DNA of 64,000 nucleotides, from positions 68,405 to 132,404 of the forward strand of contig JAGBDV010000002.1 in the NCBI GenBank assembly GCA_017937305.1, written 5' to 3'. This DNA is from Bacilli bacterium. Its GTDB lineage: Bacteria; Bacillota_I; Bacilli_A; ML615J-28; CAG-313. Position numbers and translations under genes: made by a program. Shown one piece after another: positions 8,387-36,003 of this stretch. The notes under the pieces are model-generated. The model had not been told where the DNA came from. It worked only from the letters and a program-made list of their open reading frames with translations, and did not search any database. The number at the start of each line of letters is the position of its first letter. Position 1 is the first letter of the stretch.

Positions 8387-11300
8387 ATGAAAAAACTTTC
8401 TAAATTTTTATTTGTCTTTCTTCTTGGTGCATTATGTTTAATTGCATCATGTAAGAAAGAAATTCAAGAAGTAACTTTTACAAATATTCCAGAATCAATG
8501 TATGTAAATGATTCATTCACAGTGGAATACTCAAAACAAGAGGATGTAACAGCTACATTTGTTAGTAGCAATATTAATGTTGCAACTGTTGAAGGAGAAA
8601 AAGTTACTGCTGTTGCTGCAGGTGAATTTACATTAACTGCAACATTTACTTTAGGAAAAAAGACAAAAGAATATAAACACACAATTACTGTTCTTAATGC
8701 AGAATTTAATATTAATTATAATTTAAATGAAGGTGTGCTACCTGGTGATGCTCCTAGTAAATATAATGTAAAGAATCTACCTCTTACACTAGTTAATCCA
8801 ACTCGTGAAGGATATATCTTTAGTGGTTGGTATTTAAGTGAAGATTTTAGTGGCAATCAAGTTACTGAAATTGTAAAAGGTTCAATTGGAGAAGTTAACC
8901 TTTATGCAAAATGGGTTGAGGCTCCAGTTTATCTTACTATTACTTATAGTTTAAATAGTGGTAAACTTCCTGATGGTGCTCCTACAGAGTTCGTTAAAGG
9001 TATTGGTGTTAAACTTCCTGTTCCTACACGCGAAGGTTATAACTTCTTAGGTTGGACAAAGACAAAAACTGGACAAACTTATATTTCAGAAATTAGTGAA
9101 ACAGAAACTACTAATGTAACAGTTTATGCTCAATGGGAAAAAATTATCTACTATGGTAATATCACATATGAATTAAATGGTGGTACATTACCTGAAGGTG
9201 CTGCTTCTAAATATGAAGAAGGAAAAGCATTTACTCTTCCTATTCCTACACAAGAAGGTTATAAATTCTTAGGATGGTCTAAAGAAGCTGGTTCTACTTC
9301 TTATATTGAAAAGATTCCTGCAACTCAAAAAGGTGATGTAACTGTTTATGCAAACTGGGAAGAAATTAAAGAACCTAGTGTTGGGGATCCATTCACAGTT
9401 GAATTTGAACTAAATGGTGGTGCTTGGAGCTGGACAACTGGTACAGTTGTTGATGCTTCTAAAGGAATTGATTCTGTATCTAATTTACCAGAAATCTTCA
9501 TGGCTGATTTCTACACTTATTTAGTTGAAAATAATTTACTAAACTCAAGTAAAGTTTCTACAAAGATTCAAGTAAATAACTGGGCTGCATTTAGTGCAAA
9601 CAATGGTGACCCTGTTGCATTATACAATACTACTTCAACTGTTAAAACTGGTGCTGCTGATGGTTATAGTGAATTATTCTTTGATAGTATTAATGGTTAT
9701 GTTGCTGTTGGTGGATTCTTAGGTACAAGTCCTTATAAAGAAAAATATGCTAATGTTACAAAACACATGATTCAAATGACACTTTATAGATATAGTACTG
9801 TTCCAGTAACTGATAAAACATTCAAAGCTGGTGCTGGATTTGTTCTTGATGGATATTTCTATGGTACTCAAGGATTACTTGCAAGTTCTAAAGCAAATTA
9901 TCAAGAATTTAATGCTTTACGTGCTTTAATTCCAACTCCAACTGTTGGTTATGATAATAGTACTGCAACTCAAAATACTTATTTAGTATCTGAAGGTGTT
10001 ATTGGCACTGAATTAAAACTTGTTGCTCCAGTTAAAGAAGGACATATGTTCTTAGGCTGGTATGATAATGCAGAATTTGCTGGTGAAAAAATTGAAAGCG
10101 TTAAGGCTGGTTGCAAATTATATGCTTGTTGGTTTGATTTAAATGCACCTGCTCCAACATTTAAGATTGAATATGAATTAAATGGTGGAACAAATGATGC
10201 TGATGCACCTACAAGTTATACTCAAGGTGATGCAGTTGAATTACTTAAACCAACTAGAAGTGGTTATACTTTCCTTGGTTGGTCAACTGATGCTGAAGGT
10301 AATAATATTGTTACAGAAATTGCTGCTACTTCAAAAGGTGATGTAAAATTATATGCTAACTGGGCAGAAGGTGAAGAAGAAATTTACACAATTGAATATA
10401 AATATTCAGAAGGTAAACTACCTACTTATACTGTTGATTCACTAGAAGCATTTACTGCTTACTTCTTTGAAAAATTCCACGCATGGAGTGGATCTTCAGC
10501 CTCTGTTGAAGACTTTAAGAATGCTGCACTAGGTGCTTGGTCAAGTGGTTCTGATGGTGGTTATAAATTATATCTTCAAAATGCACGTGGACAAGTTAAT
10601 GAAAGTTACTTTGTTCATGCAGCTGAAAATATCGAACTATGGACTCCTTGGATGGATGTAATGGATGCTAAAGTTACAGAAATTAATGGTTCACAAAATG
10701 CTTGGGGTTCTAACTATGTAGGTTACTTAAGAATTGCTGCATTCTTCAAACAATCTGCATCATACTGGACAGCAGCTCGTACTGAAGACGTTTATAAAGG
10801 TTTAGCAATTCCTAAAGAATTAGTTAATGAATATAGACCTGGTGATAGTTTTGAATTACTAGAATTAAGTGTTAATGATGGAAGAACATTCCTTGGTTGG
10901 TATGATCAAAATGGAAATAAAGTTGAAAGAATTACTGCAACTTCAAAAGAAGATTTAGTATTAACTGCTAAATGGAGTGAAGCAATTCCTGTTGAAACAT
11001 TTGAAATTACAAATGAAATTACTAAATTATTAAAACTTGGTACTCATCAATTAACTTGGACTATTGGTCCAGATAATGCAACATTCAAGAAACTTACATT
11101 TGCATCAAGTGATGAAAGTGTATTAACAGTTTCAGAAAATGGTTTAATTGAAGCAATTAATATTGGTACTGCAAAAGTATTAATTACAGTTTACGGTAAT
11201 ACTTCACTTAACACTGAAATTGAAATTGAAGTTTATGTTGATCCTTATATTGATGGTGAATTCGTTGATGAAACATATGTTGTCGCTGAACAATCAATTC

Positions 11301-12571
11301 AACTTGCTGCTAAATATGTTGGCAAGAACACAACAAACTTAGTATGGGCTTCTAAAACTCCAGATATTGCATCAGTTGATGAAACAGGTGCTGTTACAGG
11401 TCATAAAGAAGGTCTTGCAGAAATCGTAGTTTCTGATGCAAATAATGACAAAGTATCATTTACATTCTACGTTACTGTTCTTAAAGAAGCTCCTACAGGA
11501 ATGTTAAAATTATTACTTGATAGTAATAATAAAGAAGTATATACAAAAGATCATTTACTAATCGGTATTAAGATTGGTAGTGATGGTGCTTATTACTCTG
11601 ATATTGTAGGTAGCGTATCTAAATTATTCTTTGAAGATTATGAAGTTCATACAGACTATTATCTTGAAAATCCAAATAATAAATCTAATTATAGTTCAGG
11701 TGGTGTTCAATTTATTACTGTTCACTATGCTGCTGATATGCCATATTCATCTTCTGCAATGTTTAATGGTGGTAAAAACCTTGCTTCTTACAATAAATCA
11801 TGTAACACAAACGGAACTCAAGCTTCATGGCATTATAGTGTTGGTAACGATGGTATTTGGGCTTCTCAAAATGAAGCTTATGCTGCATGGCATGCTGGTT
11901 CAAGTAAAACTATGACATGGACCAACAGTGGTGTTACAACTAGTCAAGTTGGTACAGATGTTTTACCTACAGATGTTAAATTAGGTAGTGATGGATACTT
12001 CTATATTAAAGGTGTTAAGACAACTGTTAAGAATACTACTTCAAGTACTAAACTTAATGGTATGGGATTAGCTGTTAAATTAGAAGGTACTACATGGCAA
12101 TTAGGTGGCCATTACTATAACTCAACTTATCAATACATTTCTTCTACTGGTGGTAATAATAACTCAATCGGTATGGAAACATCAGTTAGAGAAGGTTCTG
12201 ACCTATGGTTAACATGGCAATACACTGCTCAACTTTGTGCTAAACTTCTATTAAAATATAAATTACCTATTCAAAGACTAGTAGGTCACCACTTCTTCAG
12301 TGGTAAATGGTGTCCTCAACCAATGCTAGAAAATGATCTAGAAATTTGGCATGAATTTGTAGAACTTACAAGACAACAAATGGATTTATATGAAAACTAT
12401 GCTGATTATAAATTATCATTTGCAAGTGAAAGTTCTTACTTAAAAGATAATGGTAGAGTAAAAGAATTACCTAATTATCCTGAATGTGTAACTTATACTG
12501 TAACTTATACAACAGGATCAACAACTAAGACAATTACATTATCTTCAGTTCTTCCAGGTAACTTAGAATAA
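8387..12571 (+). CDS. Surface lipoprotein: Ig-like and InlB-B (Flg_new) repeats with a C-terminal Amidase_2 (paralog 1)
   Basis: Lipobox LIASC; repeats Y.LNGG...P.REGY.F.GW...LYA.W; amidase motifs ITVH, WHAG, SIGME, GHH, KWCP. Confidence 0.88.
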   Translation: MKKLSKFLFVFLLGALCLIASCKKEIQEVTFTNIPESMYVNDSFTVEYSKQEDVTATFVSSNINVATVEGEKVTAVAAGEFTLTATFTLGKKTKEYKHTITVLNAEFNINYNLNEGVLPGDAPSKYNVKNLPLTLVNPTREGYIFSGWYLSEDFSGNQVTEIVKGSIGEVNLYAKWVEAPVYLTITYSLNSGKLPDGAPTEFVKGIGVKLPVPTREGYNFLGWTKTKTGQTYISEISETETTNVTVYAQWEKIIYYGNITYELNGGTLPEGAASKYEEGKAFTLPIPTQEGYKFLGWSKEAGSTSYIEKIPATQKGDVTVYANWEEIKEPSVGDPFTVEFELNGGAWSWTTGTVVDASKGIDSVSNLPEIFMADFYTYLVENNLLNSSKVSTKIQVNNWAAFSANNGDPVALYNTTSTVKTGAADGYSELFFDSINGYVAVGGFLGTSPYKEKYANVTKHMIQMTLYRYSTVPVTDKTFKAGAGFVLDGYFYGTQGLLASSKANYQEFNALRALIPTPTVGYDNSTATQNTYLVSEGVIGTELKLVAPVKEGHMFLGWYDNAEFAGEKIESVKAGCKLYACWFDLNAPAPTFKIEYELNGGTNDADAPTSYTQGDAVELLKPTRSGYTFLGWSTDAEGNNIVTEIAATSKGDVKLYANWAEGEEEIYTIEYKYSEGKLPTYTVDSLEAFTAYFFEKFHAWSGSSASVEDFKNAALGAWSSGSDGGYKLYLQNARGQVNESYFVHAAENIELWTPWMDVMDAKVTEINGSQNAWGSNYVGYLRIAAFFKQSASYWTAARTEDVYKGLAIPKELVNEYRPGDSFELLELSVNDGRTFLGWYDQNGNKVERITATSKEDLVLTAKWSEAIPVETFEITNEITKLLKLGTHQLTWTIGPDNATFKKLTFASSDESVLTVSENGLIEAINIGTAKVLITVYGNTSLNTEIEIEVYVDPYIDGEFVDETYVVAEQSIQLAAKYVGKNTTNLVWASKTPDIASVDETGAVTGHKEGLAEIVVSDANNDKVSFTFYVTVLKEAPTGMLKLLLDSNNKEVYTKDHLLIGIKIGSDGAYYSDIVGSVSKLFFEDYEVHTDYYLENPNNKSNYSSGGVQFITVHYAADMPYSSSAMFNGGKNLASYNKSCNTNGTQASWHYSVGNDGIWASQNEAYAAWHAGSSKTMTWTNSGVTTSQVGTDVLPTDVKLGSDGYFYIKGVKTTVKNTTSSTKLNGMGLAVKLEGTTWQLGGHYYNSTYQYISSTGGNNNSIGMETSVREGSDLWLTWQYTAQLCAKLLLKYKLPIQRLVGHHFFSGKWCPQPMLENDLEIWHEFVELTRQQMDLYENYADYKLSFASESSYLKDNGRVKELPNYPECVTYTVTYTTGSTTKTITLSSVLPGNLE

Positions 12572-12577
12572 AAAAAT

Positions 12578-12609
12578 AAAATATCCCATTTATATAAATG
12601 GGATATTTT
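12578..12609. terminator. Bidirectional intrinsic terminator
   Basis: AAAATATCCCATTTA/TAAATGGGATATTTT between convergent genes. Confidence 0.85.
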
Positions 12610-13374
12610 TTATTTTATTGAAATTATTTTAGAATGTTTACTAATAAGTTTTACAAGCAAATCTCCAACAGCTACAATTACAATTATTATTATTAACCAC
12701 GCGAGTAATGGACCATAACCTTCTAAATTACCTTTTAAATTCACTAGCACTCCACCGATTGTTCCATCTACTTGATTCATATATTCACTCATAATCATTA
12801 CTTTAAGTCCTAATCCAAAAGACTGTAAGAATGTAGTAACAATATATGGAACACATAAAGGAACGTAGACAGCGATAAATTTTCTAAAAGGATTAATATT
12901 TAACATCTTTAAATCATCAATAATCGATTTATCTATATTATCTATTGCTCCAATAATTCCTTCAATCATTAATGGAAAGATCACTAAGAATGCAACAATA
13001 CTAGGAGCTATATCTCGATATTCAAAAAAAGCATATAAAATATAGATAGATATTATTGCAAAAGGAGCAGCCTTTAAAATATTAATGATTGGTTTAAAAA
13101 AGTAAATTGAATGGGGAATTATTATATATATGAAGCTAATTAATAAAGCTATTAAAAATGCAGATAATATAACTATTACAACATTTAAAAGAGTTATACC
13201 CAAAACTTTAATACTAGAATGATTACTAAATATATATCCAATGTTTTTAAAAATCTCTAAAACTTTAGGAAATACATAATCATTATTTTGATAAACAGCA
13301 ACTAATTGCCAAATAACAAATATTAAGATGATTGATGAACAACCAAATAAATATTTTTTAATAGTAGAATTCAT
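12610..13374 (-). CDS. ABC transporter permease (SsuC/NitT type)
   Basis: Six TM segments, a degenerate EAA loop and LKVMIMSEY...G.G; coupled to the substrate-binding protein gene. Confidence 0.8.
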   Translation of the reverse strand: MNSTIKKYLFGCSSIILIFVIWQLVAVYQNNDYVFPKVLEIFKNIGYIFSNHSSIKVLGITLLNVVIVILSAFLIALLISFIYIIIPHSIYFFKPIINILKAAPFAIISIYILYAFFEYRDIAPSIVAFLVIFPLMIEGIIGAIDNIDKSIIDDLKMLNINPFRKFIAVYVPLCVPYIVTTFLQSFGLGLKVMIMSEYMNQVDGTIGGVLVNLKGNLEGYGPLLAWLIIIIVIVAVGDLLVKLISKHSKIISIK

Positions 13375-14290
13375 CTACTGGTAAACTTCCTCCCATTTGT
13401 TTAGAGAACCCTAAATCCATCATCATTTGTAAATAGTAATTAACTGCTTCTTTATCACTTTCTAAAATTTGATAGTGGCAATTAGGAATTGCAGAAACTA
13501 ATACTTCCTTACCTAATGTTGCAAATGAAGAGTGTAATAAAACAGCTTTTTCTGCACAAACATTTGGATTTTCATTGGCATTTATAATTGCATTTTTCAT
13601 TTCTTCTAATTGGTCTTTAATAAATTTATGTTTTGTAATACTTTTCTTTACAAAGATACCAGCTTGAGGATAAGACTCATTTCCAGTCATTTTAGCCCAC
13701 TCATCTTGTAAATCAATAATTGATAAATTAAGTTTAGATTTTAACTTTGAAATAGCAGGTTCAGCAGAAACAACGATTTCAGCTTTTCCTCCTGCAAGAA
13801 GTGTATTTGCTTCTGCAACATCTGAAACATATTCTACAGTTACAGTAATATCTGAATGATGTTTAAGTAATGCTTGCATTACAATATCAGGTGTAGAGTT
13901 TTTACCAAATGCAACAACAGTCTTACCATCTAAATCTTTAAACGAATTTAGTGGGGATTTACTTGCAAGATATAAGTTACCCCAAACAAATGTTTTATAC
14001 AATACATATTCTTGATTAACTTGATACATTTTTGCACCTAAATTTACTGGTGCTACAATAACATCATGACTACCTGAAGTAAATGCTGCAACTAAAGGTT
14101 CACTACCTGCAACAACTTCTGCTTTTACATCTGTATTATCAACTGCATATTCAGCTAATCCTAATGCTGGAGTTCCGCTTGGCATAATTATTGATAATTC
14201 TTCTTTTGCTCCTTCATCATTTGTTATTGTACAACTTGTAACAACAATTCCCATTAATAAAATAAATAAACTTAAAATAATTTTTTTCAT
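13358..14290 (-). CDS. ABC substrate-binding lipoprotein (NMT1/SsuA-like)
   Basis: Lipobox VVTSC; PSGTPAL and DLDGKTV..GKNSTPD motifs. Start set at MKKII after an AGGAG SD. Confidence 0.8.
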   Translation of the reverse strand: MKKIILSLFILLMGIVVTSCTITNDEGAKEELSIIMPSGTPALGLAEYAVDNTDVKAEVVAGSEPLVAAFTSGSHDVIVAPVNLGAKMYQVNQEYVLYKTFVWGNLYLASKSPLNSFKDLDGKTVVAFGKNSTPDIVMQALLKHHSDITVTVEYVSDVAEANTLLAGGKAEIVVSAEPAISKLKSKLNLSIIDLQDEWAKMTGNESYPQAGIFVKKSITKHKFIKDQLEEMKNAIINANENPNVCAEKAVLLHSSFATLGKEVLVSAIPNCHYQILESDKEAVNYYLQMMMDLGFSKQMGGSLPVDEFYY

Positions 14291-14384
14291 AATATGTCTC
14301 CTTTTCATGTAACTTTAATATTTATTATATTTATTATTTCTTATTATTTGCATTTATATTATACATTTGTTAAAATAAATATGT

Positions 14385-14400
14385 TGTAACAAATGTTACA
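14385..14400. promoter_or_regulatory. Crp/Fnr-type (HcpR2-like) palindromic site
   Basis: TGTAAC-AAAT-GTTACA between the divergent SBP and Crp/Fnr genes. Confidence 0.65.
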
Positions 14401-14414
14401 CTTTTGGAGAAAAT

Positions 14415-15005
14415 ATGAATATTATTAATTTACTTAAAGAACAAGAAATAAAAGAAAATGTAAGATATAAAACTTTTGATAAAGAGCAAGTTGTTTTTGA
14501 TGAAGGTGCTAAATGTTATGGGATAGGAATTGTTATTGAAGGAGAGATTCTTATCAAAACATTTACTTATAATATTAAAGAAGAAATCATTACTATTATT
14601 AAAGAGAATAATATATTTGGACAATTTCTATTGTTTTCAAAAAATGATAAATATCTTGGTATGGGCATTACCTCTAAAAAAACAAAAATTGCATATATAT
14701 CAAAAGCTAATCTTCTTTTATTATTATCATCTAATAAAGCTTTTTTAGAAGAATACTTAAAACTTATTTGTGATGAAGCTGTAAAAATCAAACAACAATC
14801 AAAACTTCTTGCACATAAAAATATAAGAGATAGAATTATGTTTTATTTAATGACTCATCAAAAAGATAAAATTGTATATTTAAAATCAGTAACTTTTCTT
14901 GCAAACACATTATCAATACCAAGACCTAGTATTTCAAGAGAACTTACTAATATGGAAAATGATGGTTTAATAAAAAGAGCAGGTAAACTTATATATATAA
15001 AATAG
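14415..15005 (+). CDS. Crp/Fnr family transcriptional regulator (HcpR-like)
   Basis: N-terminal cNMP-binding-like domain; C-terminal HTH LSIPRPSISREL. Confidence 0.88.
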   Translation: MNIINLLKEQEIKENVRYKTFDKEQVVFDEGAKCYGIGIVIEGEILIKTFTYNIKEEIITIIKENNIFGQFLLFSKNDKYLGMGITSKKTKIAYISKANLLLLLSSNKAFLEEYLKLICDEAVKIKQQSKLLAHKNIRDRIMFYLMTHQKDKIVYLKSVTFLANTLSIPRPSISRELTNMENDGLIKRAGKLIYIK

Positions 15006-15025
15006 CAGTACAAAGTACTGCTATT
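15001..15025. terminator. Bidirectional intrinsic terminator
   Basis: AATAGCAGTAC/GTACTGCTATT followed by a T run. Confidence 0.8.
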
Positions 15026-18663: not shown

Positions 18664-21600
18664 TTAGTAAATTTTACCAAAGTTACCTTCATTCCAAATT
18701 AATTTTGCAGAATAAGAACCATCCCATTGAGTCCATGATGTTGTACCAGGAATTACACTGTAAAGAGTAATTGTTTTAGATACGCCACCAATAGTAACTG
18801 TAACATCATAAGAAACAGTTGTAGTAGTCTTAGGAGGATTATAAACACGACCTGTATTATCAACGATATCAGGGTTATTTGATTTCATTGTAATTTCAGC
18901 ATCAGCATAATCTTTCATGATAATATAGTTAACTTCAACCATCTTCATAAATTCATCCCAATATTGACCAGCTCTAATTGATTGAGGACAGTTTTTACCA
19001 CTCCATGTATTATGTTCTTTAACTCTATCTAGACCTAAACCATTTCTAATACAAATATCAGCAACTAATTGACCTGTTCTTTGCCATGTGTCATAAATAT
19101 CACCAGATACATTTACACACATTTCAATACCTACTGAGTTATTATTACCACCATAGTTACCGATGGAACCAGCTGCAACTTGAGAGAAATCTACTCTTAA
19201 TGGAGCAACATAGTAATAGCCATCAACAATCTTGTAACTAGGACCTAAAGTTGTGAAATGAGCTTTAGAAGGATTTGCAATAGTCTTAGTACCATTAGAA
19301 ATTGGAACTGAAATATTTGTTCTTTGACCATCAATTGTTAAGTACCAATTTGAACCATCTTGAACCATATCAAATTCTGGATCCTTTTCACCAGCTTTAA
19401 CACCTGTTGTTAACCAAGAGAATGAGTAACCTGTACCATCACCTGCATGGTATGCACGATATTTTTCACGAACTACACCTAAAATTTCATAGTTACCTGT
19501 TGTATAATGAATTGATGTACCACCAGTTGACATTGATGAGCCAATTGAATGAACTGTACCAGTAAGAGTCGCAGTATCATGAACTGTAACAAATTCAATT
19601 GTATCTTCAGCACGACGTTCTTTATGGTTAGAAGTATCTGTAATAGCATCTGAATTTGCATAATATTGTTCATTTACAACATAAGGAGTAAATAAGAAGT
19701 AGTTAACGCTACCATACATAGAATCATAGTATCTTTGCGTACCATCATTATATAAGCAAACATTACCAGCATCAACTAATGCAAAGTTATATTCAGAAAT
19801 TAATTTAACAACTTCATCAACTTTTGTTTCTTCAGCAAGATCAGCAACGATTAATTGGATCTTAACTTTGAAATTAGAACCACTATTATCACTAACTGTA
19901 ATAGTTACTGTACCTTCTTTTAATGCTTTAACATAACCATCTGCATCTACAGTTGCGATTGAAGAATCACTTGAATCAAAAGACATTACAACATTTTCAG
20001 TATTTTTACCTAATGCATGTGCATGAATTTGAACTTCTTCTCCAACACTTAATACACCATCAAATTCATCTTCGAAATCGACTTCAATTGATGGAATTGA
20101 ATAAACTGTAATTGTATAAGTCTTAATAGCGTAACCTACATAATCTCTAATTGTAATTGTACAAGTACCAGCATTATTAGCAGTCATTAAACCACCTTTT
20201 GTTACACTTATAATATCTGGGTCACTAGTTTCAAATAAAACATCTTGGAAGTATGCATCAGTTGGAAGAACTTTTGCAACAATTTGGAATGTATCACCTG
20301 TTATCATTTCTTCTATAATAGCATCTACTTGCATATCAGTTACTGGAGTTAATTCATTCCATTTAGCTTTTAGTGCCACATCTGCTTTTAAATCAAATAC
20401 TGTTTCGTATTTATTACCTAAAGCATCGTACCAACCATCAAATTCATAACCAAGTTTAAATGGTGTAATTAATTTATCATTTGTAGTTACATCAATAGTA
20501 ATTTTGCTTTCAGTAGGAGCAACATCATAGAATTTTACTTCACCAGGAGTTGTATTATCCATATCAATTGGATTACGGCTAAATGCAACAACTTGACCTA
20601 CTTTAATAGATGTAGTTACGATTGGGTGTAATTGCCCTTTATTGTTGTGTGAGTTAGAAATAGTTAATACATATTCAGCACCAGCAGCCCATGAAGATGG
20701 ACCTGATTGAATAATGTTTTTAACAACATATAAACCACTTACTTCATCTTTACCAATATAAATTCTATCAGAGAATGTAGCACCAGGGTCACATGAAGTT
20801 GTACCTAAGAATACATATTGTGCATAGTTAGTACCAGTCCAGAAAGCACCTTCATTGTAGTTGTAGTTATTAACCGTTAATGTTGCAGCAGGAGTACCTA
20901 ATTTTAAGTAAGACTCACCTGATACACCACCATCTAAATCATATTCAACTACAAATGCACTAATTCGTTGCCAATTTGCATATAGAGTTATATCTTCTAT
21001 ATTGTCTTTACCAATCGAATCAATATAATCAGTTGAATTAGGTTTAATACTCCAACCAAGGAATGTCCAACCATCACGAACTGGAGTACCTAGTACTAAT
21101 TCAGAACCAGCCATTACTAAATTATCTGCGTTATAAACACCACCATCTAATTCATAAGTAACTTTATAGAATTTAACAGCATCAGCAACATTAATTGTTG
21201 GTTTAGTAGTAAGTGTAGTACCGTAAGATTTGCAATGTTTAAATAAAGATGCATGCTTAGATAAATCTGTAATTACTTGACCATTATTATCTTCATAGTA
21301 GTTTTCAGCAAATACTGCTAAATGCGGGTTAGTACTTTCTGAATCACCTGTACCATTATATGATTGATAATAGAATTCAGTTGGTAAACCTAAGAAAATA
21401 TTGTTTTTAATATCACAAGACCAAGGACCATCTGAGTTGCCTTGACCATTGTTTCTAAAGTAAATACCATTGTAACAATGATCAAAAATGTTTTCTTCGA
21501 TTGTAATTACACCACCGTGTTCTTGATAACTCCATGCACCAATCGTACCACTGTTAGCAGTATTAGTCATCAAACCACCACACTTGATGAATTCATTACC

Positions 21601-24600
21601 TTTAAATATAATTACAGTTGAAGTACTAGCTTTACCACTATAGCTCTTGAAGTATACAGCATTTTGACCTTTTCCAACAGTAGGATTTTCGAATTTATTA
21701 TTAGTGAATGATAATACACCATAAACATAACCGCCATCAATTCTGATACAGTCACGAGTATAATTATAGAATTCATTATTATCAACAGTTAAATTGTAGT
21801 TTCTACCTACATGAATATTTTCTGCAGCAACGTTTTCAAATTTATTATTATTAAATGCAAAGTTTGTTGCACTATTAACAGCACTGTAAGCAAATTGAAT
21901 GAAACCAGAATCAACATAGTTCGTTGTAGGTTTATATTCTGCAGCAACTAAAGTTGAATCAACAACTAAATTGTTTTGGAAAATAAATCCTGAATAATCA
22001 CCCGATTTACCAGTAACTTGAGCAGCACCAGTAAATTTTAAACCATCAATGACAAGATTCTTAGCAGCAGCATTAACTGTAATAACAGATTTAATTACAG
22101 CTTCAGCAGCACGATTAGTTGCGTGACCTGCAACGCCAGCATTAGGACCTTGAATTGTAAGGTTTGGTGTTTTAATTGTTACAGCTTCATTATAATCACC
22201 AGCAACAAGTTTAATAATATCTCCATTTTGAGCAGCAGCTAAAGCAGCAGATAATGTTGCATAATGTCCTTCTTCAGTTGTACCATCAACGATTAAGAAT
22301 GGTTCTCTCCATTTTGCAACAAGAGTTAATTCACCTGTTGTTCCAGCAGGAATAGATTCAACTTTTACACCATTTAAGAACCAACCACTAAATAGGTAAC
22401 CTTCTTTTTCAACGATAGGTAAGCTTTCAATACCCAAATCTTTATCATAAGCAAATGGATAAGTAGAAATAATTTCACCTTCAGCAGCATCAAATGTTAC
22501 TTTAAAATATTGATCTGGATATTTTTCAGCAAGAATTAACATATAACGAGATGCTCTATCTGCTTCACTCTTCGCAACAGTTACATCAGCTGTAACAGTT
22601 GAGATAGCTGATAATTCAGAAGGAGCAATATTAAATGCTTTACCATCTACATCTAAATATAAGTTTTCATCAAAGACTAATTTATTTGCAGCTGTAGGAT
22701 GAGCAAATTTAGTTACATTATCAAATGTATTATATTTAATATATGATGTTTCTGCAATACTTTCGAAGTAACCTGGTTGATTAGCAGTTGTTCCAACAAA
22801 ATAGTTGTTATAAGCTTCTAAAGAACCGCCTCTTACTCTAAATAAAGCAGCAGCTGAGTTAGCAACAACACCACTTCCTAAACCTTCAACTTTATTACTT
22901 AATAAGATAGTCTTTTTAATACCAGTTGTAGTCCATAAAGCAAATTGGCCAATTGAATAAATATGAGAATTTTCAATTGTTAGTATAGCACTTGAACTTC
23001 CACCAACAAATTTAACAAATGTATTCATATCTGAAACTGTACAACTTGCAAATGTTAATTCTTCAACAGAACCACCATCTTGGAAATAAACACCAGCTGT
23101 TGAGCTTCCACCACCGATACCTTTTAAGTGAACACCATTAAATACTACTTTCTTAGCAGCAATGTTACCTGAAATATCTTTTGCAACATTGATTAATGCT
23201 TCATCTGCACCAAATTCAGAAACAGGTAAATCAGCATTAGGACCAACAATTTCAAAGCTCTTATTAATAACAACACCTAAAGTATATTCACCAGCAGCTA
23301 AAATAATCTTAGATCCATCAGCTGCACCAGCTATTGCTTCATCTAGTGTAGCGTAATCTAAACCAGCACCTACATAAACAGCACCTTCGATGACTTCTTG
23401 CCATTGTGCATAAACCTTAATATCTTCTTTTTCTGTAGCACCTACAGTTGTAATATAATCAGTAGATTCTATTTCTTTTGTCCAACCTAAGAATTTAAAA
23501 CCTTCTTTTGTAGGAATTGGCAATGTAACTGCAACACCTTCTTCAAATTCGACAGGAGCATTTTCACCTTGTACACCACCATTTAATTCATAAGAAATTT
23601 CATATTTAATAATTATTAATTCCCATTGTGCGTAAACTTTAACATCACCTGTTTCAGTTGCAGCAATTTCAGTAATATATGCAGTACCTGTTTCTTCTTT
23701 TGTCCAACCTAAGAATTTATAACCATCTTTTGTAGGAGTAGGGAGAGTATAACAAGTACCTTCTTCATATTGATCTTCTGCATTATCAGGATTTGTACCA
23801 CCGTTTAATTCATAAACGATATTAGAGAATACAGGAATTTTTTCCCAGTTTGCATATAATTTAACATCAGCTTTAAGTGAACTTGCAATCTTAGTGATAT
23901 ATGTAGTAGATCCTTCAACTGTAGACCAACCTAGGAATGTATAACCTTCTTTAGTAGGATTAACAAGTTGAGTTTCTTCACCTTGTACATATTCAACTGG
24001 AGAGTTAGCACCTAAAGTACCACCATCAAGTTCATATGTAATTGCATGTTTGATATCTGCAAAGTTTGCATATAGTGTAATATCACCAGTTTGACCAGCA
24101 GCAATTTCAGTTACATATTCAGTTGAACCTTCAACTAAGCTCCAACCTAAGAATTGTTTGTTTGCTTTTGTTGCAGCTGCAATTGCAAGTGGAAGATTTC
24201 TTACATCATATTTAGCAGGGTTGCTTGATGCATTCTTACCACCATTTAATTCATAAGTGATTGTATATTCACCTTGTTGAACTTCTATGTTCCATTCTTG
24301 TTTAACTTCTTTATAACCATTAGTTGCAGTTGCAGTAATTTTTGCTGATCCTGCAGCTTTAGCTTCAAAGTTATTTCCATCAACAGAAAGAATTTCTGCG
24401 TTAGATACTTCATAACTTACTGTTACATCACTTCCTGCTTCATGAGTAATTGAGAATTTATCTCCAACATACACATTTTCAGGAAGAGCACTATAAGTTA
24501 CGCTTCCAACTTCAGGTGCTAATACATTAACTTTAACAGTTACTGTAGCGCCTTCATATTCTTTCCATGTAGCAGTAACATTTGCAGTACCTATTCCTAC

Positions 24601-24861
24601 TGCTGTTATGCTATCATTTTCTACTTTAACAATATTTGCGTCACTTGATACGATATCAAGATTTGCTAGAATATCTTCTTCTGTGTACTTTTTAACTTCT
24701 GTAGCAGATAGTTTTAATTCCACAGCTTCGCCGATTATTACACTAATTTCAGATTTTTCAGCAGAAAGTGTAACTTTCTTCTTACCTGAACATGAAGCAA
24801 GTGTAACTAATACAGCAATGAAGATTAAGCTTAATAAAAATGCTTTCTTAAAAAACTTCAT
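18664..24861 (-). CDS. Giant surface lipoprotein: Ig-like and InlB-B repeats, two parallel beta-helix domains, C-terminal Amidase_2 (paralog 2)
   Basis: Lipobox TLASC; InlB-B repeats; YATL..A...A..G..I.L.AG.Y beta-helix caps twice; VTVHDT, YHAGD, SVGIE, KEH, KNCP. Confidence 0.88.
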   Translation of the reverse strand: MKFFKKAFLLSLIFIAVLVTLASCSGKKKVTLSAEKSEISVIIGEAVELKLSATEVKKYTEEDILANLDIVSSDANIVKVENDSITAVGIGTANVTATWKEYEGATVTVKVNVLAPEVGSVTYSALPENVYVGDKFSITHEAGSDVTVSYEVSNAEILSVDGNNFEAKAAGSAKITATATNGYKEVKQEWNIEVQQGEYTITYELNGGKNASSNPAKYDVRNLPLAIAAATKANKQFLGWSLVEGSTEYVTEIAAGQTGDITLYANFADIKHAITYELDGGTLGANSPVEYVQGEETQLVNPTKEGYTFLGWSTVEGSTTYITKIASSLKADVKLYANWEKIPVFSNIVYELNGGTNPDNAEDQYEEGTCYTLPTPTKDGYKFLGWTKEETGTAYITEIAATETGDVKVYAQWELIIIKYEISYELNGGVQGENAPVEFEEGVAVTLPIPTKEGFKFLGWTKEIESTDYITTVGATEKEDIKVYAQWQEVIEGAVYVGAGLDYATLDEAIAGAADGSKIILAAGEYTLGVVINKSFEIVGPNADLPVSEFGADEALINVAKDISGNIAAKKVVFNGVHLKGIGGGSSTAGVYFQDGGSVEELTFASCTVSDMNTFVKFVGGSSSAILTIENSHIYSIGQFALWTTTGIKKTILLSNKVEGLGSGVVANSAAALFRVRGGSLEAYNNYFVGTTANQPGYFESIAETSYIKYNTFDNVTKFAHPTAANKLVFDENLYLDVDGKAFNIAPSELSAISTVTADVTVAKSEADRASRYMLILAEKYPDQYFKVTFDAAEGEIISTYPFAYDKDLGIESLPIVEKEGYLFSGWFLNGVKVESIPAGTTGELTLVAKWREPFLIVDGTTEEGHYATLSAALAAAQNGDIIKLVAGDYNEAVTIKTPNLTIQGPNAGVAGHATNRAAEAVIKSVITVNAAAKNLVIDGLKFTGAAQVTGKSGDYSGFIFQNNLVVDSTLVAAEYKPTTNYVDSGFIQFAYSAVNSATNFAFNNNKFENVAAENIHVGRNYNLTVDNNEFYNYTRDCIRIDGGYVYGVLSFTNNKFENPTVGKGQNAVYFKSYSGKASTSTVIIFKGNEFIKCGGLMTNTANSGTIGAWSYQEHGGVITIEENIFDHCYNGIYFRNNGQGNSDGPWSCDIKNNIFLGLPTEFYYQSYNGTGDSESTNPHLAVFAENYYEDNNGQVITDLSKHASLFKHCKSYGTTLTTKPTINVADAVKFYKVTYELDGGVYNADNLVMAGSELVLGTPVRDGWTFLGWSIKPNSTDYIDSIGKDNIEDITLYANWQRISAFVVEYDLDGGVSGESYLKLGTPAATLTVNNYNYNEGAFWTGTNYAQYVFLGTTSCDPGATFSDRIYIGKDEVSGLYVVKNIIQSGPSSWAAGAEYVLTISNSHNNKGQLHPIVTTSIKVGQVVAFSRNPIDMDNTTPGEVKFYDVAPTESKITIDVTTNDKLITPFKLGYEFDGWYDALGNKYETVFDLKADVALKAKWNELTPVTDMQVDAIIEEMITGDTFQIVAKVLPTDAYFQDVLFETSDPDIISVTKGGLMTANNAGTCTITIRDYVGYAIKTYTITVYSIPSIEVDFEDEFDGVLSVGEEVQIHAHALGKNTENVVMSFDSSDSSIATVDADGYVKALKEGTVTITVSDNSGSNFKVKIQLIVADLAEETKVDEVVKLISEYNFALVDAGNVCLYNDGTQRYYDSMYGSVNYFLFTPYVVNEQYYANSDAITDTSNHKERRAEDTIEFVTVHDTATLTGTVHSIGSSMSTGGTSIHYTTGNYEILGVVREKYRAYHAGDGTGYSFSWLTTGVKAGEKDPEFDMVQDGSNWYLTIDGQRTNISVPISNGTKTIANPSKAHFTTLGPSYKIVDGYYYVAPLRVDFSQVAAGSIGNYGGNNNSVGIEMCVNVSGDIYDTWQRTGQLVADICIRNGLGLDRVKEHNTWSGKNCPQSIRAGQYWDEFMKMVEVNYIIMKDYADAEITMKSNNPDIVDNTGRVYNPPKTTTTVSYDVTVTIGGVSKTITLYSVIPGTTSWTQWDGSYSAKLIWNEGNFGKIY
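23400..24270 (-). repeat. Four tandem InlB-B repeat units (~220 bp period) within paralog 2
   Basis: Near-identical DNA segments TTCTTTTGTCCAACCTAAGAATTTA recur at ~23473 and ~23695. Confidence 0.85.
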
Positions 24862-25025: not shown

Positions 25026-27938
25026 CTATCTATCTACATAAATACCTTGTACCATTGATGCAAGAGTAATCGATTTACTTTCACCATCTTTTGTAAATGT
25101 AATTGTATAAGTAACACATGTAGATTGTTCTGGTTGATTTACAACTCTACCATTTTTATTAACGATATCTGGATTATTAGAAGTAATTGATACTTCATAA
25201 CCAGCATACTTAGTTAATAGTTCATATTCTGCTTCAACAAGTTCTAAGAATTCCCACCAAATTTCTAAATCGTTTTCAAGCATTGGTTGAGGACAATCTT
25301 TTGCAGTATAGAAGTGGTGACCTCTAACTCTTGTAATATCAAGATTTTGTCTTACCATAATATCAGCAACTAGTTGTGCAGTTTTTTGCCATGTCCACCA
25401 AAGGTCAGAACCTTCATTTACACATGATTCAATACCGATAGAATTTCTATTACCACCTGTTGAACAAATACGTCCTTCATAAACTTGAGTATATGCCCAC
25501 CAAGTTGTACCCATGTAATATTCATCACCAACAATCTTGAATGGTAAACTTTGATCATTAATAAATGATTCAGCTTCTCTATTGTAGAAGGCATTACCAC
25601 TATAAGAAGAATTAGATGAGATAGTACCATCAGCATTTAATTTATGATCAGTACCTCTTGAGCTATAATTCCAAGGTTTAGGCATAGGAATTGTAGTTTT
25701 CTTTCCATTAATTTCATAATAGAAGTCATCTGAAATTGTAAAGTTAGGATACATTGGATCAGCAGCGGCTACTTTAACACCAGATGGAATCCATTTAAAT
25801 TCACCAACTTGAGCAAGTGCACCAGAATCCCCTGCATGCCATGCACCTTTTGATTCATCCATACAGTAGAATACACCATCATTACCAGTTGTATAGTGAA
25901 TTGATGTAGAACCATTTGTTGCGAAGTAACTTGCGTTTGCTGCAGCATTAGCTCCTTTTGCCATATTACCTGTATAGTGAACTGTAATGAATTCAATTGA
26001 ACTCATTGTGCCATATGTAGCTTGAGATTGATTTGATTTATCATAATAAGTTGTATCTTTTTTCAAATTACTATTACCAAATAATTTAGATACACTTCCT
26101 AAAATATCCTTACGATAAGTGTTACCAATATTTAGGTCGTATCTTGTAAATACATTACTTTCATTTGATCTAAGTGCTAAATCTAAAATTCCCTCAGGTA
26201 ATGCTTCTAAAACCATTACAACAAATTCAAGTTTTAATTCAGCATTCTTTGGATCTTTTGCAACAATCTTAGCTTCACCAGCATTAATACCAGTTACATT
26301 ACCACTTTCATCTACAGTAGCAATTTCTGGAGTTAATGATTCCCATACAACTTCACTCGTAGATTCATCACGGTAATTTACTATACCATTTAGTTTAATA
26401 TTTTCATCGATTAAAACATAAGAATTAGTTTCATATGAACCATCAATATAATCACCAGTATATACTTCTAATTCAAACTTAACATCTAAATCACGATTTC
26501 CATTTACTTGAACAGTAATAAATGTAATACCATTACTTAAAGCTTTAATAACACCTCTTGCGTTTACTGTTGCAACACTTTCATCACTTGAATAGAATTT
26601 AACAGTATTATCAGTTACATTTTTAGGACCAATAGTCCATACTAATTGATGAGATGTAAATAATAATAATTCAGAAATTTGATTAATTTCAAATGTTTCT
26701 GCAAATACTTCTTCTTCCCATTTTGCATAGAATACTTTGTTTCCAGTATCAGATGCACCAAGTTTAGTAATAGGGTTACCACTAAATTCTGGATTATCAT
26801 ACCAACCTAAAAATTTTAAGCCACTTTCTAATGATAATACAGGAAGAGTTAATTCTTGTCCTGCTTTATATTTAGATGGTACTTCTTCTTTAATTGGAGT
26901 AACATCACACATTTTTTGAATATAATTTGAGAAATACTTTTCGCCTGATGAATTCCATGAAATGAATTGATGCATTCTTACCATTGCGGCATACGTATCT
27001 GTATAGAAGTTTTGATCTTTACTTACTACTAACATTGCAGTGTTAAATTGTAAGAAGAATTTACTCCATTTTTGATAATATTTAGGAGTATTTAAGAAAT
27101 AGTTAGTTTGACCAGTTGTTGAAGGATTATTTTTTAAAGAAGGGTTACGTAATTTAATATCTTCATATGCTTCTAGTTGTTGTTTAATTTTGCTAACATA
27201 ATCATCAAAGCTAGAAGTTTCTCCATTACCTTGTGCCCATTCATATAAATCTTTAAATAATTCATCAACTATTTCTTCACGATTTTTAGCAGCTCTTGTA
27301 GGCCAAATTGCATCTTCTTTATTCGCTTCAAATTTAACTTTATAAACGCCTACTGGAGTTACTTCTACTAGCCATTCTTGAATATCTTCTTCATATCCAT
27401 TACTTGCAGTTGCAGTAATGATTACATCACCTTCATCATTAGCTGTAAATTTATTGTCTTTTACTGATAAAATATTTTCATCAGATGTTTCATATTTTAC
27501 TGTTACTTCTTTTTCTGATTGATGTTCAATTGTGAATGTATCACCTATAAAAATGTTTTCTGGTAGTTCTGAATATGTAATAACACCTAATTTAGGAGCA
27601 ACTACATTTACTTTTACTGTAGCTGTTGCACCATCATATTCTTTCCATGTTGCAGTGACTTCTGCAGTACCAACTTCTACTGCAACAGCTTTATCATCTT
27701 TAATTTTAATTACTTTATCATCACTTGATGATAATTTTAAATTTGATAATATATCTTCTTCAGAGTATTTTTTTGCTCCTGTTGCAGATAATTTCAAATC
27801 AACTACATCACCTACTGAAACAGTAATTTCTTCAGTTGTTGCAGAAAGCGAAACTTTCTTTTTAGCACCACAAGAAACTAATGTTACAAATAAGGTAATT
27901 AATACAAAACTTAATAATGCTTTCTTAAAAAACTTCAT
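25026..27938 (-). CDS. Surface lipoprotein: Ig-like domains, a split InlB-B repeat and a C-terminal Amidase_2 (paralog 3)
   Basis: Lipobox TLVSC; N-terminus similar to paralog 2; ITVHYT, WHAGD, SIGIE, GHH, KDCP. Confidence 0.88.
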   Translation of the reverse strand: MKFFKKALLSFVLITLFVTLVSCGAKKKVSLSATTEEITVSVGDVVDLKLSATGAKKYSEEDILSNLKLSSSDDKVIKIKDDKAVAVEVGTAEVTATWKEYDGATATVKVNVVAPKLGVITYSELPENIFIGDTFTIEHQSEKEVTVKYETSDENILSVKDNKFTANDEGDVIITATASNGYEEDIQEWLVEVTPVGVYKVKFEANKEDAIWPTRAAKNREEIVDELFKDLYEWAQGNGETSSFDDYVSKIKQQLEAYEDIKLRNPSLKNNPSTTGQTNYFLNTPKYYQKWSKFFLQFNTAMLVVSKDQNFYTDTYAAMVRMHQFISWNSSGEKYFSNYIQKMCDVTPIKEEVPSKYKAGQELTLPVLSLESGLKFLGWYDNPEFSGNPITKLGASDTGNKVFYAKWEEEVFAETFEINQISELLLFTSHQLVWTIGPKNVTDNTVKFYSSDESVATVNARGVIKALSNGITFITVQVNGNRDLDVKFELEVYTGDYIDGSYETNSYVLIDENIKLNGIVNYRDESTSEVVWESLTPEIATVDESGNVTGINAGEAKIVAKDPKNAELKLEFVVMVLEALPEGILDLALRSNESNVFTRYDLNIGNTYRKDILGSVSKLFGNSNLKKDTTYYDKSNQSQATYGTMSSIEFITVHYTGNMAKGANAAANASYFATNGSTSIHYTTGNDGVFYCMDESKGAWHAGDSGALAQVGEFKWIPSGVKVAAADPMYPNFTISDDFYYEINGKKTTIPMPKPWNYSSRGTDHKLNADGTISSNSSYSGNAFYNREAESFINDQSLPFKIVGDEYYMGTTWWAYTQVYEGRICSTGGNRNSIGIESCVNEGSDLWWTWQKTAQLVADIMVRQNLDITRVRGHHFYTAKDCPQPMLENDLEIWWEFLELVEAEYELLTKYAGYEVSITSNNPDIVNKNGRVVNQPEQSTCVTYTITFTKDGESKSITLASMVQGIYVDR

Positions 27939-28110: not shown

Positions 28111-29880
28111 TTATTTTTCAGGGAATCTTTCTCTTGAATGATAATGAGTATGTAATAACTCATGAGCTTTATGAGAATTAGGTTCACCTAAGAATTCTTT
28201 ATAAAGTGCTTGAATTTGTGTATTATTATGAGATTGACGAAGAGTTTGTCTTTCATCTTCAGAATAAAGAGCTTGAGCACGTTTTTGTTTAAATGTATCT
28301 AAAATATTAGTATCTTCATTAGGTAAGAACATTGGTTTAACATATGGTTGACCACCACCGTTAATACATCCACCAGGACAACCCATGATTTCAATGAATG
28401 TATATGGGCTCTTACCATCTCTGATTTGATCCATTAATACTTTAGCATTCTTCATACCAGATGCAATAGCGACTTTAATTACGTTTCCATTGATATTGAT
28501 TTCAGCTTCTTTTAAACCATCCATACCACGAACAGCTTCAAATTTAATAGCTTCGTGTTCTTTACCAGTTAATGCAAAGTAAGCAGTTCTAAGTGCAGCT
28601 TCCATAACACCACCAGTAGCACCGAAGATAACACCAGCACCAGTGTATTCACCCATGATGTCTTGGTCAAATTCTTCATCAGGAAGTTTATTAAAGTTAA
28701 TACCACTACGTTTGATTAATTTTGCAAGTTCTCTTGTAGTAAGTACTGCATCAACATCTCTTAATCCTTCACATTCCATTTCAGGACGTTCTTTTTCAAA
28801 TTTCTTAGCTGTACAAGGCATAATTGATACAACGAAAATATCTTTTGGATCAATATTGTTCTTTTCAGCATAGTAAGATTTGATAATAGCACCTTGCATT
28901 TGGTGTGGAGATTTACAGCTTGATAAATGATCTAATTGATCTCCGTAATAATATTCAGCATAGTTAACCCAACCTGGAGAACATGAAGTAATCATTGGAA
29001 GAACACCATCATTTTTAATTCTACCAAGAAGTTCATTTGCTTCTTCCATAATAGTTAAGTCAGCAGCAAAGTTTGTATCATAAACTTTAGCAAAGCCAAG
29101 TCTCTTAAGTGCAGCAACCATTTTACCAGTAACAGCAGTACCAATAGGTAAACCAAATTCTTCACCTAAAGCAGCTCTTACAGCAGGAGCAGTTTGAACA
29201 ACTACATGTTTGCCAGCAAGCATAGCAGCATCAACTTTTTCAATTTCACTCTTTTCAGAAAGTGCACCAGTAGGACATACGCTTACACATTGGCCACAAA
29301 GGATACAAGGAGTTTCAGAGAATGAACGTTCAGCAGCAGGAGCAACGATTGTACTAAAGCCACGTTTTTCAAATCCTAAGATACCAGTACCATGAGCATT
29401 TTGACAACGAGCAACACAACGACCGCAAAGGATACATTTAGAAGTGTCACGAACTAAAGATGGAGTTAAATCATCATAGCTAACTGGAGTCTTAGCACCT
29501 AAGAATTTACCTTCTCTAGCACCAGTGATTTGAGCTACATATAATAATTCACAATGTCCATTCTTTTCACATTGTTGACAGTTCATTGAGTGATTTGATA
29601 ATAATAATTCAACACTTAAACGACGAGCAGCAGCAGCTTTTGGAGAAGAAATTTTAATTTCCATACCTTCAGCAACTGGATATACACATGATGCAACTAA
29701 TCCTCTTGCACCTGTTGCTTCAACTAGACAAACACGACAAGAAGCTAAGCTACATTCACCATGATTAAAGCTACATAATGAAGGGATTTCATAACCACAT
29801 TCTCTTGCAGCTTCTAAAATTGTAAGGCCTTCTTCTACTTGATAAGCAACGCCTTCGATTTTAATATTAATTTTTGCCAT
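28111..29880 (-). CDS. hydA: [FeFe]-hydrogenase catalytic subunit (group A)
   Basis: H-cluster motifs TSCSPGW, MPCTAKKFE and EIMGCPGGCINGGGQP; N-terminal 2Fe-2S, His-ligated and 2x4Fe-4S domains. Confidence 0.96.
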   Translation of the reverse strand: MAKINIKIEGVAYQVEEGLTILEAARECGYEIPSLCSFNHGECSLASCRVCLVEATGARGLVASCVYPVAEGMEIKISSPKAAAARRLSVELLLSNHSMNCQQCEKNGHCELLYVAQITGAREGKFLGAKTPVSYDDLTPSLVRDTSKCILCGRCVARCQNAHGTGILGFEKRGFSTIVAPAAERSFSETPCILCGQCVSVCPTGALSEKSEIEKVDAAMLAGKHVVVQTAPAVRAALGEEFGLPIGTAVTGKMVAALKRLGFAKVYDTNFAADLTIMEEANELLGRIKNDGVLPMITSCSPGWVNYAEYYYGDQLDHLSSCKSPHQMQGAIIKSYYAEKNNIDPKDIFVVSIMPCTAKKFEKERPEMECEGLRDVDAVLTTRELAKLIKRSGINFNKLPDEEFDQDIMGEYTGAGVIFGATGGVMEAALRTAYFALTGKEHEAIKFEAVRGMDGLKEAEININGNVIKVAIASGMKNAKVLMDQIRDGKSPYTFIEIMGCPGGCINGGGQPYVKPMFLPNEDTNILDTFKQKRAQALYSEDERQTLRQSHNNTQIQALYKEFLGEPNSHKAHELLHTHYHSRERFPEK

Positions 29881-29895
29881 TAGAATATACCTCCA

Positions 29896-31758: not shown

Positions 31759-32246
31759 TAGTTTGCACCTCCCATTTTACGATATTCTTCAATGATTGCT
31801 GGAACTTGAGAAACTGCAACTTTTGGATAAACTTTACCATTAATTGATAAAGCAGGAGCAATACCACAAGCACCGATACAACGTAATGCTTCTAAAGTGA
31901 ATAAACCATCTTCAGTAGTTTCACCTGGTTTAATGTTTAAAATTTCTGAGAATTTGTCAATAACTTGTTGTGCGCCTTTAACGTAACAAGCAGTACCTAG
32001 ACATACACCAATAACATATTTCCCTTTTGGATTTAAAGAGAAGAATGAATAGAATGTAACTACACCATAAATTTCTGCAACAGGTACTCCAATTTGTTCA
32101 GACACTAATTCTTGTACTTCAAGAGGGATGTAACCAAATTCCTTTTGGATGTCACTTAAGATCATCATTAAAGGAGTTTTCTCATCTTTGTATCTTGAAA
32201 TAATTTCAATAATTTGCTTTTCAGCATGAGCTTGTAAATGAGCCAT
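31758..32246 (-). CDS. hydC: NuoE-like 2Fe-2S subunit of the hydrogenase
   Basis: VTFYSFF, CLGTAC and CIGAC motifs; translationally coupled to hydB. Confidence 0.95.
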   Translation of the reverse strand: MAHLQAHAEKQIIEIISRYKDEKTPLMMILSDIQKEFGYIPLEVQELVSEQIGVPVAEIYGVVTFYSFFSLNPKGKYVIGVCLGTACYVKGAQQVIDKFSEILNIKPGETTEDGLFTLEALRCIGACGIAPALSINGKVYPKVAVSQVPAIIEEYRKMGGAN

Positions 32247-34926: not shown

Positions 34927-36003
34927 TTACACTAATTTAACATATTTATAACTTTCAACTACATCATCTTTAGTTGTTTCAATAGTATATTCTATACCTT
35001 TTACGCACTTAGGTAATTTAGTAAGTACACCATTAGGTTCTAAATATTCCGAATGAGGAATAAGTTTAATTTGATATCCTTCTTTAACAAATTCTAAAAT
35101 GTCTTTTTCTACTTCTACTAAGTGTAAGAAATATTCCCATAAGTTATTAACTCTTAAAGTTTGAGGACAGTTCTTTCCACTAAAGAAGTGATGTTGTTTA
35201 ATATCATAAATTTCTAAATCATTTTCATCAAGTAGTTTTGCAACTAATTTAGCACATCTCATAAAGGATAACCAAACATTAGTACCTTCATTAACACATG
35301 TTTCAATACCAATAGAGTTATTATTTCCTCCACGGTTTGCAATCTTTTCATATGTTTTATTAAAGTATGTTTCACCTAAATAGAAATATTCATCATCAAC
35401 AGCCATACAAATACCTTGGTCATTAATATCGTCAACAGTACATACTCTTTTAATTACTTTACCGTCTACTTCTTTTTCAAACATCGGTGCAGGAACAGTT
35501 GTTTTTTCACCGTTAATTGTATAAAAACTATCTTCACTAATGCCAAGTTCAAACTTATCCGATACTTTTACGCCAGTATTATATAAAGTGTAATCATATT
35601 GTGTTGTATCACCTGCGTGATATGCTACTTCATTATCAGGAATATTATGATATATCCCATCATTTCCAACTACATATTGAAAACTAGCTTTGTATGGTTC
35701 TTTTGTATCTACCCACATTTCTTTATAAACAGTATCACTCCAAAATTTTGCAGTGTGTTTTGCACCTGTATCGCCTGTATCATGAACTGTTATATATACT
35801 TTAGGTTTTATTCTTAAATCTCTATTTTCATTTTTTTCTTTTGCGATATGTTCTTTAATATCTAAAGATTCAAATAAATAAGGAGTTATTGAAGATATCA
35901 TTGTTTGTTTAAAGATTTTTTGCCAACCACAAACAACAATTTCTTTTTTAAATACTTCTTCAGTGTTATTTAATTTATTAAAATATTCTAAAACTTTATT
36001 CAT
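34927..36003 (-). CDS. Stand-alone Amidase_2 without a signal peptide (paralog 4)
   Basis: ITVHDT, YHAGD, SIGIE, QHH, KNCP; same insertion and flanking segments as the three lipoproteins. Confidence 0.88.
   Translation of the reverse strand: MNKVLEYFNKLNNTEEVFKKEIVVCGWQKIFKQTMISSITPYLFESLDIKEHIAKEKNENRDLRIKPKVYITVHDTGDTGAKHTAKFWSDTVYKEMWVDTKEPYKASFQYVVGNDGIYHNIPDNEVAYHAGDTTQYDYTLYNTGVKVSDKFELGISEDSFYTINGEKTTVPAPMFEKEVDGKVIKRVCTVDDINDQGICMAVDDEYFYLGETYFNKTYEKIANRGGNNNSIGIETCVNEGTNVWLSFMRCAKLVAKLLDENDLEIYDIKQHHFFSGKNCPQTLRVNNLWEYFLHLVEVEKDILEFVKEGYQIKLIPHSEYLEPNGVLTKLPKCVKGIEYTIETTKDDVVESYKYVKLV

Follow-up and report, generated by a model that had tools for sequence, protein, structure and literature searches.

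A predicted all-beta insert, likely derived from a surface repeat, in the zinc amidases of an ML615J-28 bacterium

Insert-bearing amidases of the window

The stretch analysed here (the window; 64,000 nucleotides of contig JAGBDV010000002.1 from a Bacilli bacterium of the order ML615J-28) encodes four paralogous amidases of the Amidase_2 family, A to D, in which an insert of 83-124 amino acids (aa) interrupts the catalytic region. A sequence-only reading of the window had placed these inserts between the motifs (W/Y)HAG and GGNxNS(I/V)GxE, and its boundaries, with lengths of 83, 96, 124 and 93 aa, proved exact. The shared elements it had named, (S/T)GV, an aromatic..I.G.(K/R)T segment and a later aromatic strand, were visible in our alignments. 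The genes, inserts and active-site residues are listed below.

8387..12571, + strand: paralog A, a 1394-aa predicted lipoprotein with lipobox, InlB-B (Flg_new) and Big_2 stalk and C-terminal Amidase_2 domain; H1113, E1264, H1301, C1309
11708..12313, + strand: Amidase_2 catalytic region of A, interrupted by the insert
11900..12148, + strand: insert of A, 83 aa (aa 1172-1254)
11972..12034, + strand: likely intact DUF4988-type repeat unit within insert A (aa 1196-1216)
12104..12148, + strand: aromatic hairpin at the end of insert A; 'hairpin-only' relatives retain this part alone
18664..24861, - strand: paralog B, a 2065-aa predicted lipoprotein amidase; H1761, E1913, H1950, C1958
19153..19440, - strand: insert of B, 96 aa; repeat unit 19306-19371
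25026..27938, - strand: paralog C, a 970-aa predicted lipoprotein amidase; H654, E837, H874, C882
25458..25829, - strand: insert of C, 124 aa, its middle loop being long and variable; repeat unit about 25689-25739
34927..36003, - strand: paralog D, a 358-aa amidase without signal peptide; H74, E234, H271, C279
35332..35610, - strand: insert of D, 93 aa (aa 132-224); repeat unit 35488-35553; terminal hairpin 35332-35376

A, B and C each carry a lipobox and an InlB-B/Big_2 stalk; D has no signal peptide. All four paralogs bear the insert, as the sequence-only reading had stated, and the genome (1.43 Mb, 72% complete) holds ten such paralogs, which account for all its Amidase_2 matches. A profile built from the four window inserts alone retrieved the other six (E 1e-32 to 1e-6; next match E 0.076), which argues against a chance likeness. 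Identity between paralogs was 19-30% in the insert and 31-51% in the C-terminal part.

The four window paralogs matched Amidase_2 (PF01510) in Pfam with 50-69 bits against a cut-off of 26. The zinc ligands His, His and Cys and the catalytic Glu were present in 4/4 window paralogs and in 10/10 members of the genome alignment, and the modelled core had the T7-lysozyme-like fold; judged from these motifs and the model, the catalytic core is intact. The closest known enzymes are the CwlA-type Amidase_2 proteins XlyA (Bacillus subtilis PBSX, PDB 3hmb/3rdr), PlyL (1yb0) and PlyG (2l47). The fold was shared with XlyA over 154/154 residues at 1.3 Å, with an identical pattern of zinc ligands and catalytic Glu. 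XlyA aligned to D as two pieces that are adjacent in XlyA, where the linker has 4 residues (3hmb), in line with the earlier statement that the CwlA/PlyL-type link is a few residues long; the net insertion read from the alignment is therefore 79-120 aa. XlyA-type enzymes carry a C-terminal wall-binding domain, whereas in the window family a lipoprotein stalk lies N-terminal to the enzyme and the core, in the model, is nested in a split immunoglobulin (Ig)-like domain. In the model of D (34927-36003), the N- and C-terminal segments together resembled a single Ig-like domain enclosing the amidase, which would add another level of nesting. Unlike XlyA, PlyL and PlyG, the window family is chromosomal and multigene, with no phage genes among the scanned neighbours. 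The amidase domains of LytA (Streptococcus pneumoniae) and AmiA (Staphylococcus aureus) have no insert between G75 and N79, and LytA has Asp as third zinc ligand where the window paralogs have Cys. The LytA-like Asp also replaces Cys in three aligned Acholeplasma-type homologs (L092:1684-7758, L093:2843-5443 and L094:268-6828).

Fold and repeat origin of the insert

The insert modelled alone gave a ten-strand structure (predicted local distance difference test 89, predicted template-modelling score 0.79). Fold searches with it returned no match (best Z 2.1 among 48,161 chains), 78 inserts compared with Pfam-A gave none above cut-off, and sequence searches found no consistent PHROG match and no PDB match. 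SH3b, LysM, choline-binding and PG_binding domains were not matched in the Pfam or fold searches, which leaves room for a remote relation. The insert is thus predicted to be an extra, separately folding all-beta domain that matches no solved structure. A profile search of 1.84 billion representative sequences yielded 515 matches, and the best 150 were examined. These comprised 138 amidase-type proteins (in 133 the two halves of the core were present, and 5 were short fragments of 104-253 aa) and 12 tandem-repeat surface proteins without an amidase core, 9 of which scored above the DUF4988 (PF16378) cut-off; a full insert outside this amidase was not found among these 150. In alignments, the variation in insert length lay mostly in one middle loop.

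The repeat proteins pointed to an origin of the insert. A 25-column profile of 61 repeat units aligned to positions 150-172 of D with an hhalign probability of 98.5, a value inflated because the insert profile had itself selected the repeat proteins. A hidden Markov model of the unit, P-x-I-x-I-S-x-D-G-Y-W-x-I-N-G-x-K-T, scored at least 10 bits in 148/193 inserts and 0/965 shuffles, the selection being partly circular. A second match occurred in 74/193 inserts and 0/965 shuffles; 58 of these second matches lay within the last 35 residues, 11 at the insert start and 5 elsewhere. Among the 25 second matches listed, the late ones fitted the first half of the unit and the start ones its last strand. 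In one repeat protein, two neighbouring units together aligned with insert A. In the covariation analysis the opening strand was coupled with the late hairpin (N142-Y206, z 14), and further couplings joined positions that correspond between the two units (T143-T168, G144-T169, L153-M200). The insert is therefore likely to consist of one intact and one circularly permuted DUF4988-type unit, followed by a terminal aromatic hairpin.

DUF4988, a collagen-flanked beta-hairpin surface repeat, normally occurs as 4-12 tandem copies in surface-protein stalks, whereas the insert would hold about two units closed by permutation inside an enzyme loop: one 23-residue unit aligns to D 150-172, and the halves of a second fit the two ends of the insert. 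No insert itself reached PF16378 among the matches listed (25 of 26 families, 78 inserts, E up to 1), none of which had two or more members; judged by its sequence, the insert is a derivative of the DUF4988 family and not a member. The earlier proposal of an uncharacterised beta-rich subdomain thus stands as regards the predicted fold and the whole insert, which matched no sequence family or solved fold; it does not stand for the core unit, which is homologous to the DUF4988-type repeat. That repeat has no known function (PMC12078515). A predicted lipoprotein elsewhere in this genome (G000:C1:18016-19827, L121) bears one DUF4988-type unit right behind the lipid Cys, followed by a D-Ala-D-Ala carboxypeptidase (S11) domain, so that the motif is present in the local pool.

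Position and evolution of the insert

The stem-peptide region of LytA consists of Trp72, Gly75 and Asn79, and replacing residues there by alanine reduces activity (PMC3950521). Mapped by motifs, these residues would correspond to Y128, G131 and N227 of D, on either side of the insert, which agrees with the earlier expectation that the link lies near the substrate groove. Mean-field covariation over 366 sequences coupled N194-H272 (z 12), D195-H272, Q196-Q270 and A222-N286. Across 8 half-samples the pair N194-H272 kept z of at least 7.5; F207-I233 and other weaker pairs were unstable. Since H271 is a zinc ligand and the insert covaries with its neighbours, the insert body probably docks on the helix that carries it.

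Across 41 genomes of the order, many of the Amidase_2 matches were short spans without insert. Twenty regions encoding the same protein type with the same C-terminal tail had a linker of 2-8 residues, a 15-21-residue hairpin or a long insert, and the short hairpin aligned with the one that ends the long insert (probability 82, against 0.4 for a reversed control). A tree of the core only was built from 69 rows (40 long, 15 hairpin and 14 without insert), with D included, A-C left out and 32 of the long forms drawn randomly. The long state required five changes on this tree, at least three of them forced by well-supported branches. A single clade of long-insert forms was rejected (approximately unbiased test, p 1e-5). 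Repeated loss and recombination both fit this patchy distribution, the root of the tree resting on one long branch. The third zinc ligand was Cys in 39/40 long, 13/15 hairpin and 9/14 insert-less rows, the remaining rows not being parsed. Five loci (L099, L102, L108, L109 and L114) carry 3-4 amidase genes in tandem that mix long-insert, hairpin-only and insert-less forms.

The sequence-only reading had held that the insert may set prey specificity and had diversified between paralogs. We consider it unlikely that prey wall type (meso-diaminopimelate versus Lys, cross-bridge) is determined chiefly by the insert and that the insert diversified for that purpose. Its position in the loop equivalent to the LytA stem-peptide region, the lower identity of paralog inserts than of their C-terminal parts, and its repeated gain or loss speak for such a role, as do eight B alleles in which 12/96 insert sites varied against 2/127 core sites. 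However, variable sites numbered 6/83 in cluster A and 7/91 in that of the Acholeplasma protein, near the density of the core, and three ortholog pairs of D gave for the insert a nonsynonymous rate (dN) of 0.055-0.116, a synonymous rate (dS) of 1.06-1.46 and dN/dS of about 0.05-0.08, between the values of the core and Ig parts. The insert is under purifying selection. Insert identity followed core identity over 66,795 pairs (Spearman 0.70, 10 pairs discordant) and exceeded Ig-part identity in six of seven divergence bins, and the conserved insert residues are chiefly Gly, Pro and aromatics of the core. Many relatives without the insert have intact catalytic residues, and a form without signal also bears it: a hydrophobic N-terminus was found in 0/120 D-like homologs versus 93/108 long proteins, so that a probably cytoplasmic form carries the insert too. 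There was little sign of diversification, and this part of the earlier proposal was not borne out.

The insert might instead be merely tolerated or act purely as a stabiliser, as a fragment of a repeat array that landed in a permissive loop and adds only stability or bulk. Its likely source is a common surface repeat with one copy in another lipoprotein of this genome, and the insert-less relatives are many. We nevertheless find this rather improbable: the insert is retained in 10/10 paralogs here and in 31/36 other genomes of the order, it is under purifying selection, and it has a specific covarying contact beside a zinc ligand.

Host range and possible role

The insert profile, scored on at most 16 candidates per genome, matched 42/300 genomes of the class, including this one: 31/36 other genomes of the order, 4/10 in family f6 (one weak), 4/23 in family f13, and two weak single matches. 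No match occurred in 23 other families of the class. The range extends to Acholeplasma: the f13 proteins fall into clusters that bear the names A. hippikon and A. laidlawii, the latter with the type-strain entries ABX81138.1 and ABX80683.1. The relatives include Coprobacillus sp. CAG:698, which probably belongs to ML615J-28, as PMC10868615 assigns family CAG-698 to that order. Seven genomes of the order (G027, G028, G029, G031, G038, G039 and G040; 93-98% complete) and four of f13 (99%) encode the insert amidase, with 1-10 insert matches each, and gave no match to the Mur ligase, penicillin-binding protein (PBP) transpeptidase, MraY or SEDS families. MurQ and NamZ were present in all 11; G026 and G308, which have no insert amidase, had neither. 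In the present genome (G000), namZ, mupG, anmK and murQ lie side by side (G000:C18:40764-45036, L119).

We propose, with moderate confidence and from sequence and models, that the insert is an all-beta, repeat-derived accessory domain beside the groove, set in a loop of an XlyA-type zinc amidase, and that these enzymes remove peptides from foreign peptidoglycan for salvage. About two DUF4988-type units and an aromatic hairpin, located between the putative equivalents of LytA Gly75 and Asn79, would brace and extend one side of the stem-peptide groove. The insert would be dispensable for the catalytic machinery, natural insert-less forms retaining the ligands. Gene content suggests that lipoprotein stalks would keep most copies off the membrane, that signal-less copies may process imported muropeptides inside the cell, and that NamZ, AnmK, MupG and MurQ could then consume the released sugars. 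Digestion of foreign walls appears likely because the same enzymes occur in bacteria without detected wall-building genes. B. subtilis digests peptidoglycan by the successive action of an amidase, NagZ and NamZ (PMC8054146), and its AmiE-NagZ-NamZ-MurQ system resembles the present gene set in that amidase, NamZ and MurQ free and use wall sugars and peptides. It differs in that the window amidase is an Amidase_2 enzyme, multi-copy, membrane-tethered on long stalks and also found in cells without detected wall genes.

Several points weigh against this proposal, besides the inflated value for the intact repeat unit. The geometry of the groove was read from motif mapping and covariation. The second unit was weak by hhalign (probability 19-48), and so was the test of symmetry and register (Pearson 0.32 in register versus 0.24 when shifted by 4 residues, Spearman about 0.05). 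The genomes, most of them metagenome-assembled, are related to one another and thus not independent. MurQ is far wider than the insert (14/23 versus 4/23 in f13), and one genome (G018) has NamZ and lacks wall markers, yet its fetched amidases are insert-less; the salvage link therefore concerns the enzyme family and not the insert. This genome retains MraY, two Mur ligases and two PBPs, so that a role on its own wall is possible.

The enzymes could accordingly be autolysins or spore-cortex enzymes acting on the cell's own peptidoglycan. Walls and partial sporulation are predicted for most ML615J-28 members (PMC10868615), and this genome has a small dcw cluster (G000:C15:13658-23022, L120) with rsmH, a PBP, a leucine-rich-repeat lipoprotein, two Mur ligases and mraY. 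The wall machinery may be minimal, since the complete relative G006 gave one SEDS and two PBP matches. We judge a self-directed role very improbable, as the eleven genomes without the four wall markers hold insert amidases, and for remodelling of the cell's own wall ten paralogs in 1.4 Mb, with membrane-anchored stalks reaching 2,600 aa, seem excessive. That the insert serves as a regulatory lid or as a docking site for a partner, holding the enzyme off its own wall until activation, is hardly credible: the insert would dock by a zinc ligand, the genome has a wall-synthesis machinery that would need protection and autoinhibited amidases exist in other families (PMC10268282), but the insert persists in genomes without detected wall markers and the core shows no sign of distortion when superposed on XlyA.

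What is new is the putative repeat-derived accessory domain; the enzyme carrying it is already well known. In the open literature, covered at abstract level, we found no paper on this amidase family or its insert, and PMC5337950 offered nothing of relevance. The family would offer a worked case of a surface repeat excised, permuted and grafted beside an active site, with natural forms that have none of it, the hairpin only or the full insert. It also hints at an unexamined lifestyle, in which bacteria without wall genes retain several wall-cutting enzymes and sugar-salvage genes. The homologs in cultured A. laidlawii make both the graft and the lifestyle testable at the bench, and the amidases may find use as lysins. 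Anaeroplasma bactoclasticum is reportedly a bacteriolytic rumen mollicute. PMC8941964 mentions bacteriolytic mollicutes of the rumen. A bolder and quite tentative possibility is that wall-less or wall-reduced Bacilli (ML615J-28-type gut bacteria, Acholeplasma) feed on bacteria by contact through giant tethered amidases, with the insert of unsolved fold as a swappable module choosing the walls cut. If true, the lysis of bacteria that has long been reported for rumen mollicutes would gain a molecular explanation, and the habit would be present also in the laboratory organism A. laidlawii.

Bovine metatranscriptome contigs (runs X1 and X2 of one study) span both the A and the D catalytic region, inserts included; contigs give no expression level, and DNA carry-over is possible. 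The N-termini of B and C (23118-24861 and 27400-27938) are very similar, and RNA contigs of a related strain showed another repeat order in the 5' part of B. The 56-64 kb region of the window has 20-23% G+C and surrounds a 1006-aa open reading frame (60833-63853) with no Pfam match. A three-gene [FeFe]-hydrogenase cluster (HydABC-like) occupies 28111-32246, with amidases C and D on either side. One RNA contig (X1) fuses position 12575 to 15022, and a related strain may thus be without the ABC-type and regulator genes found at 12576-15021.
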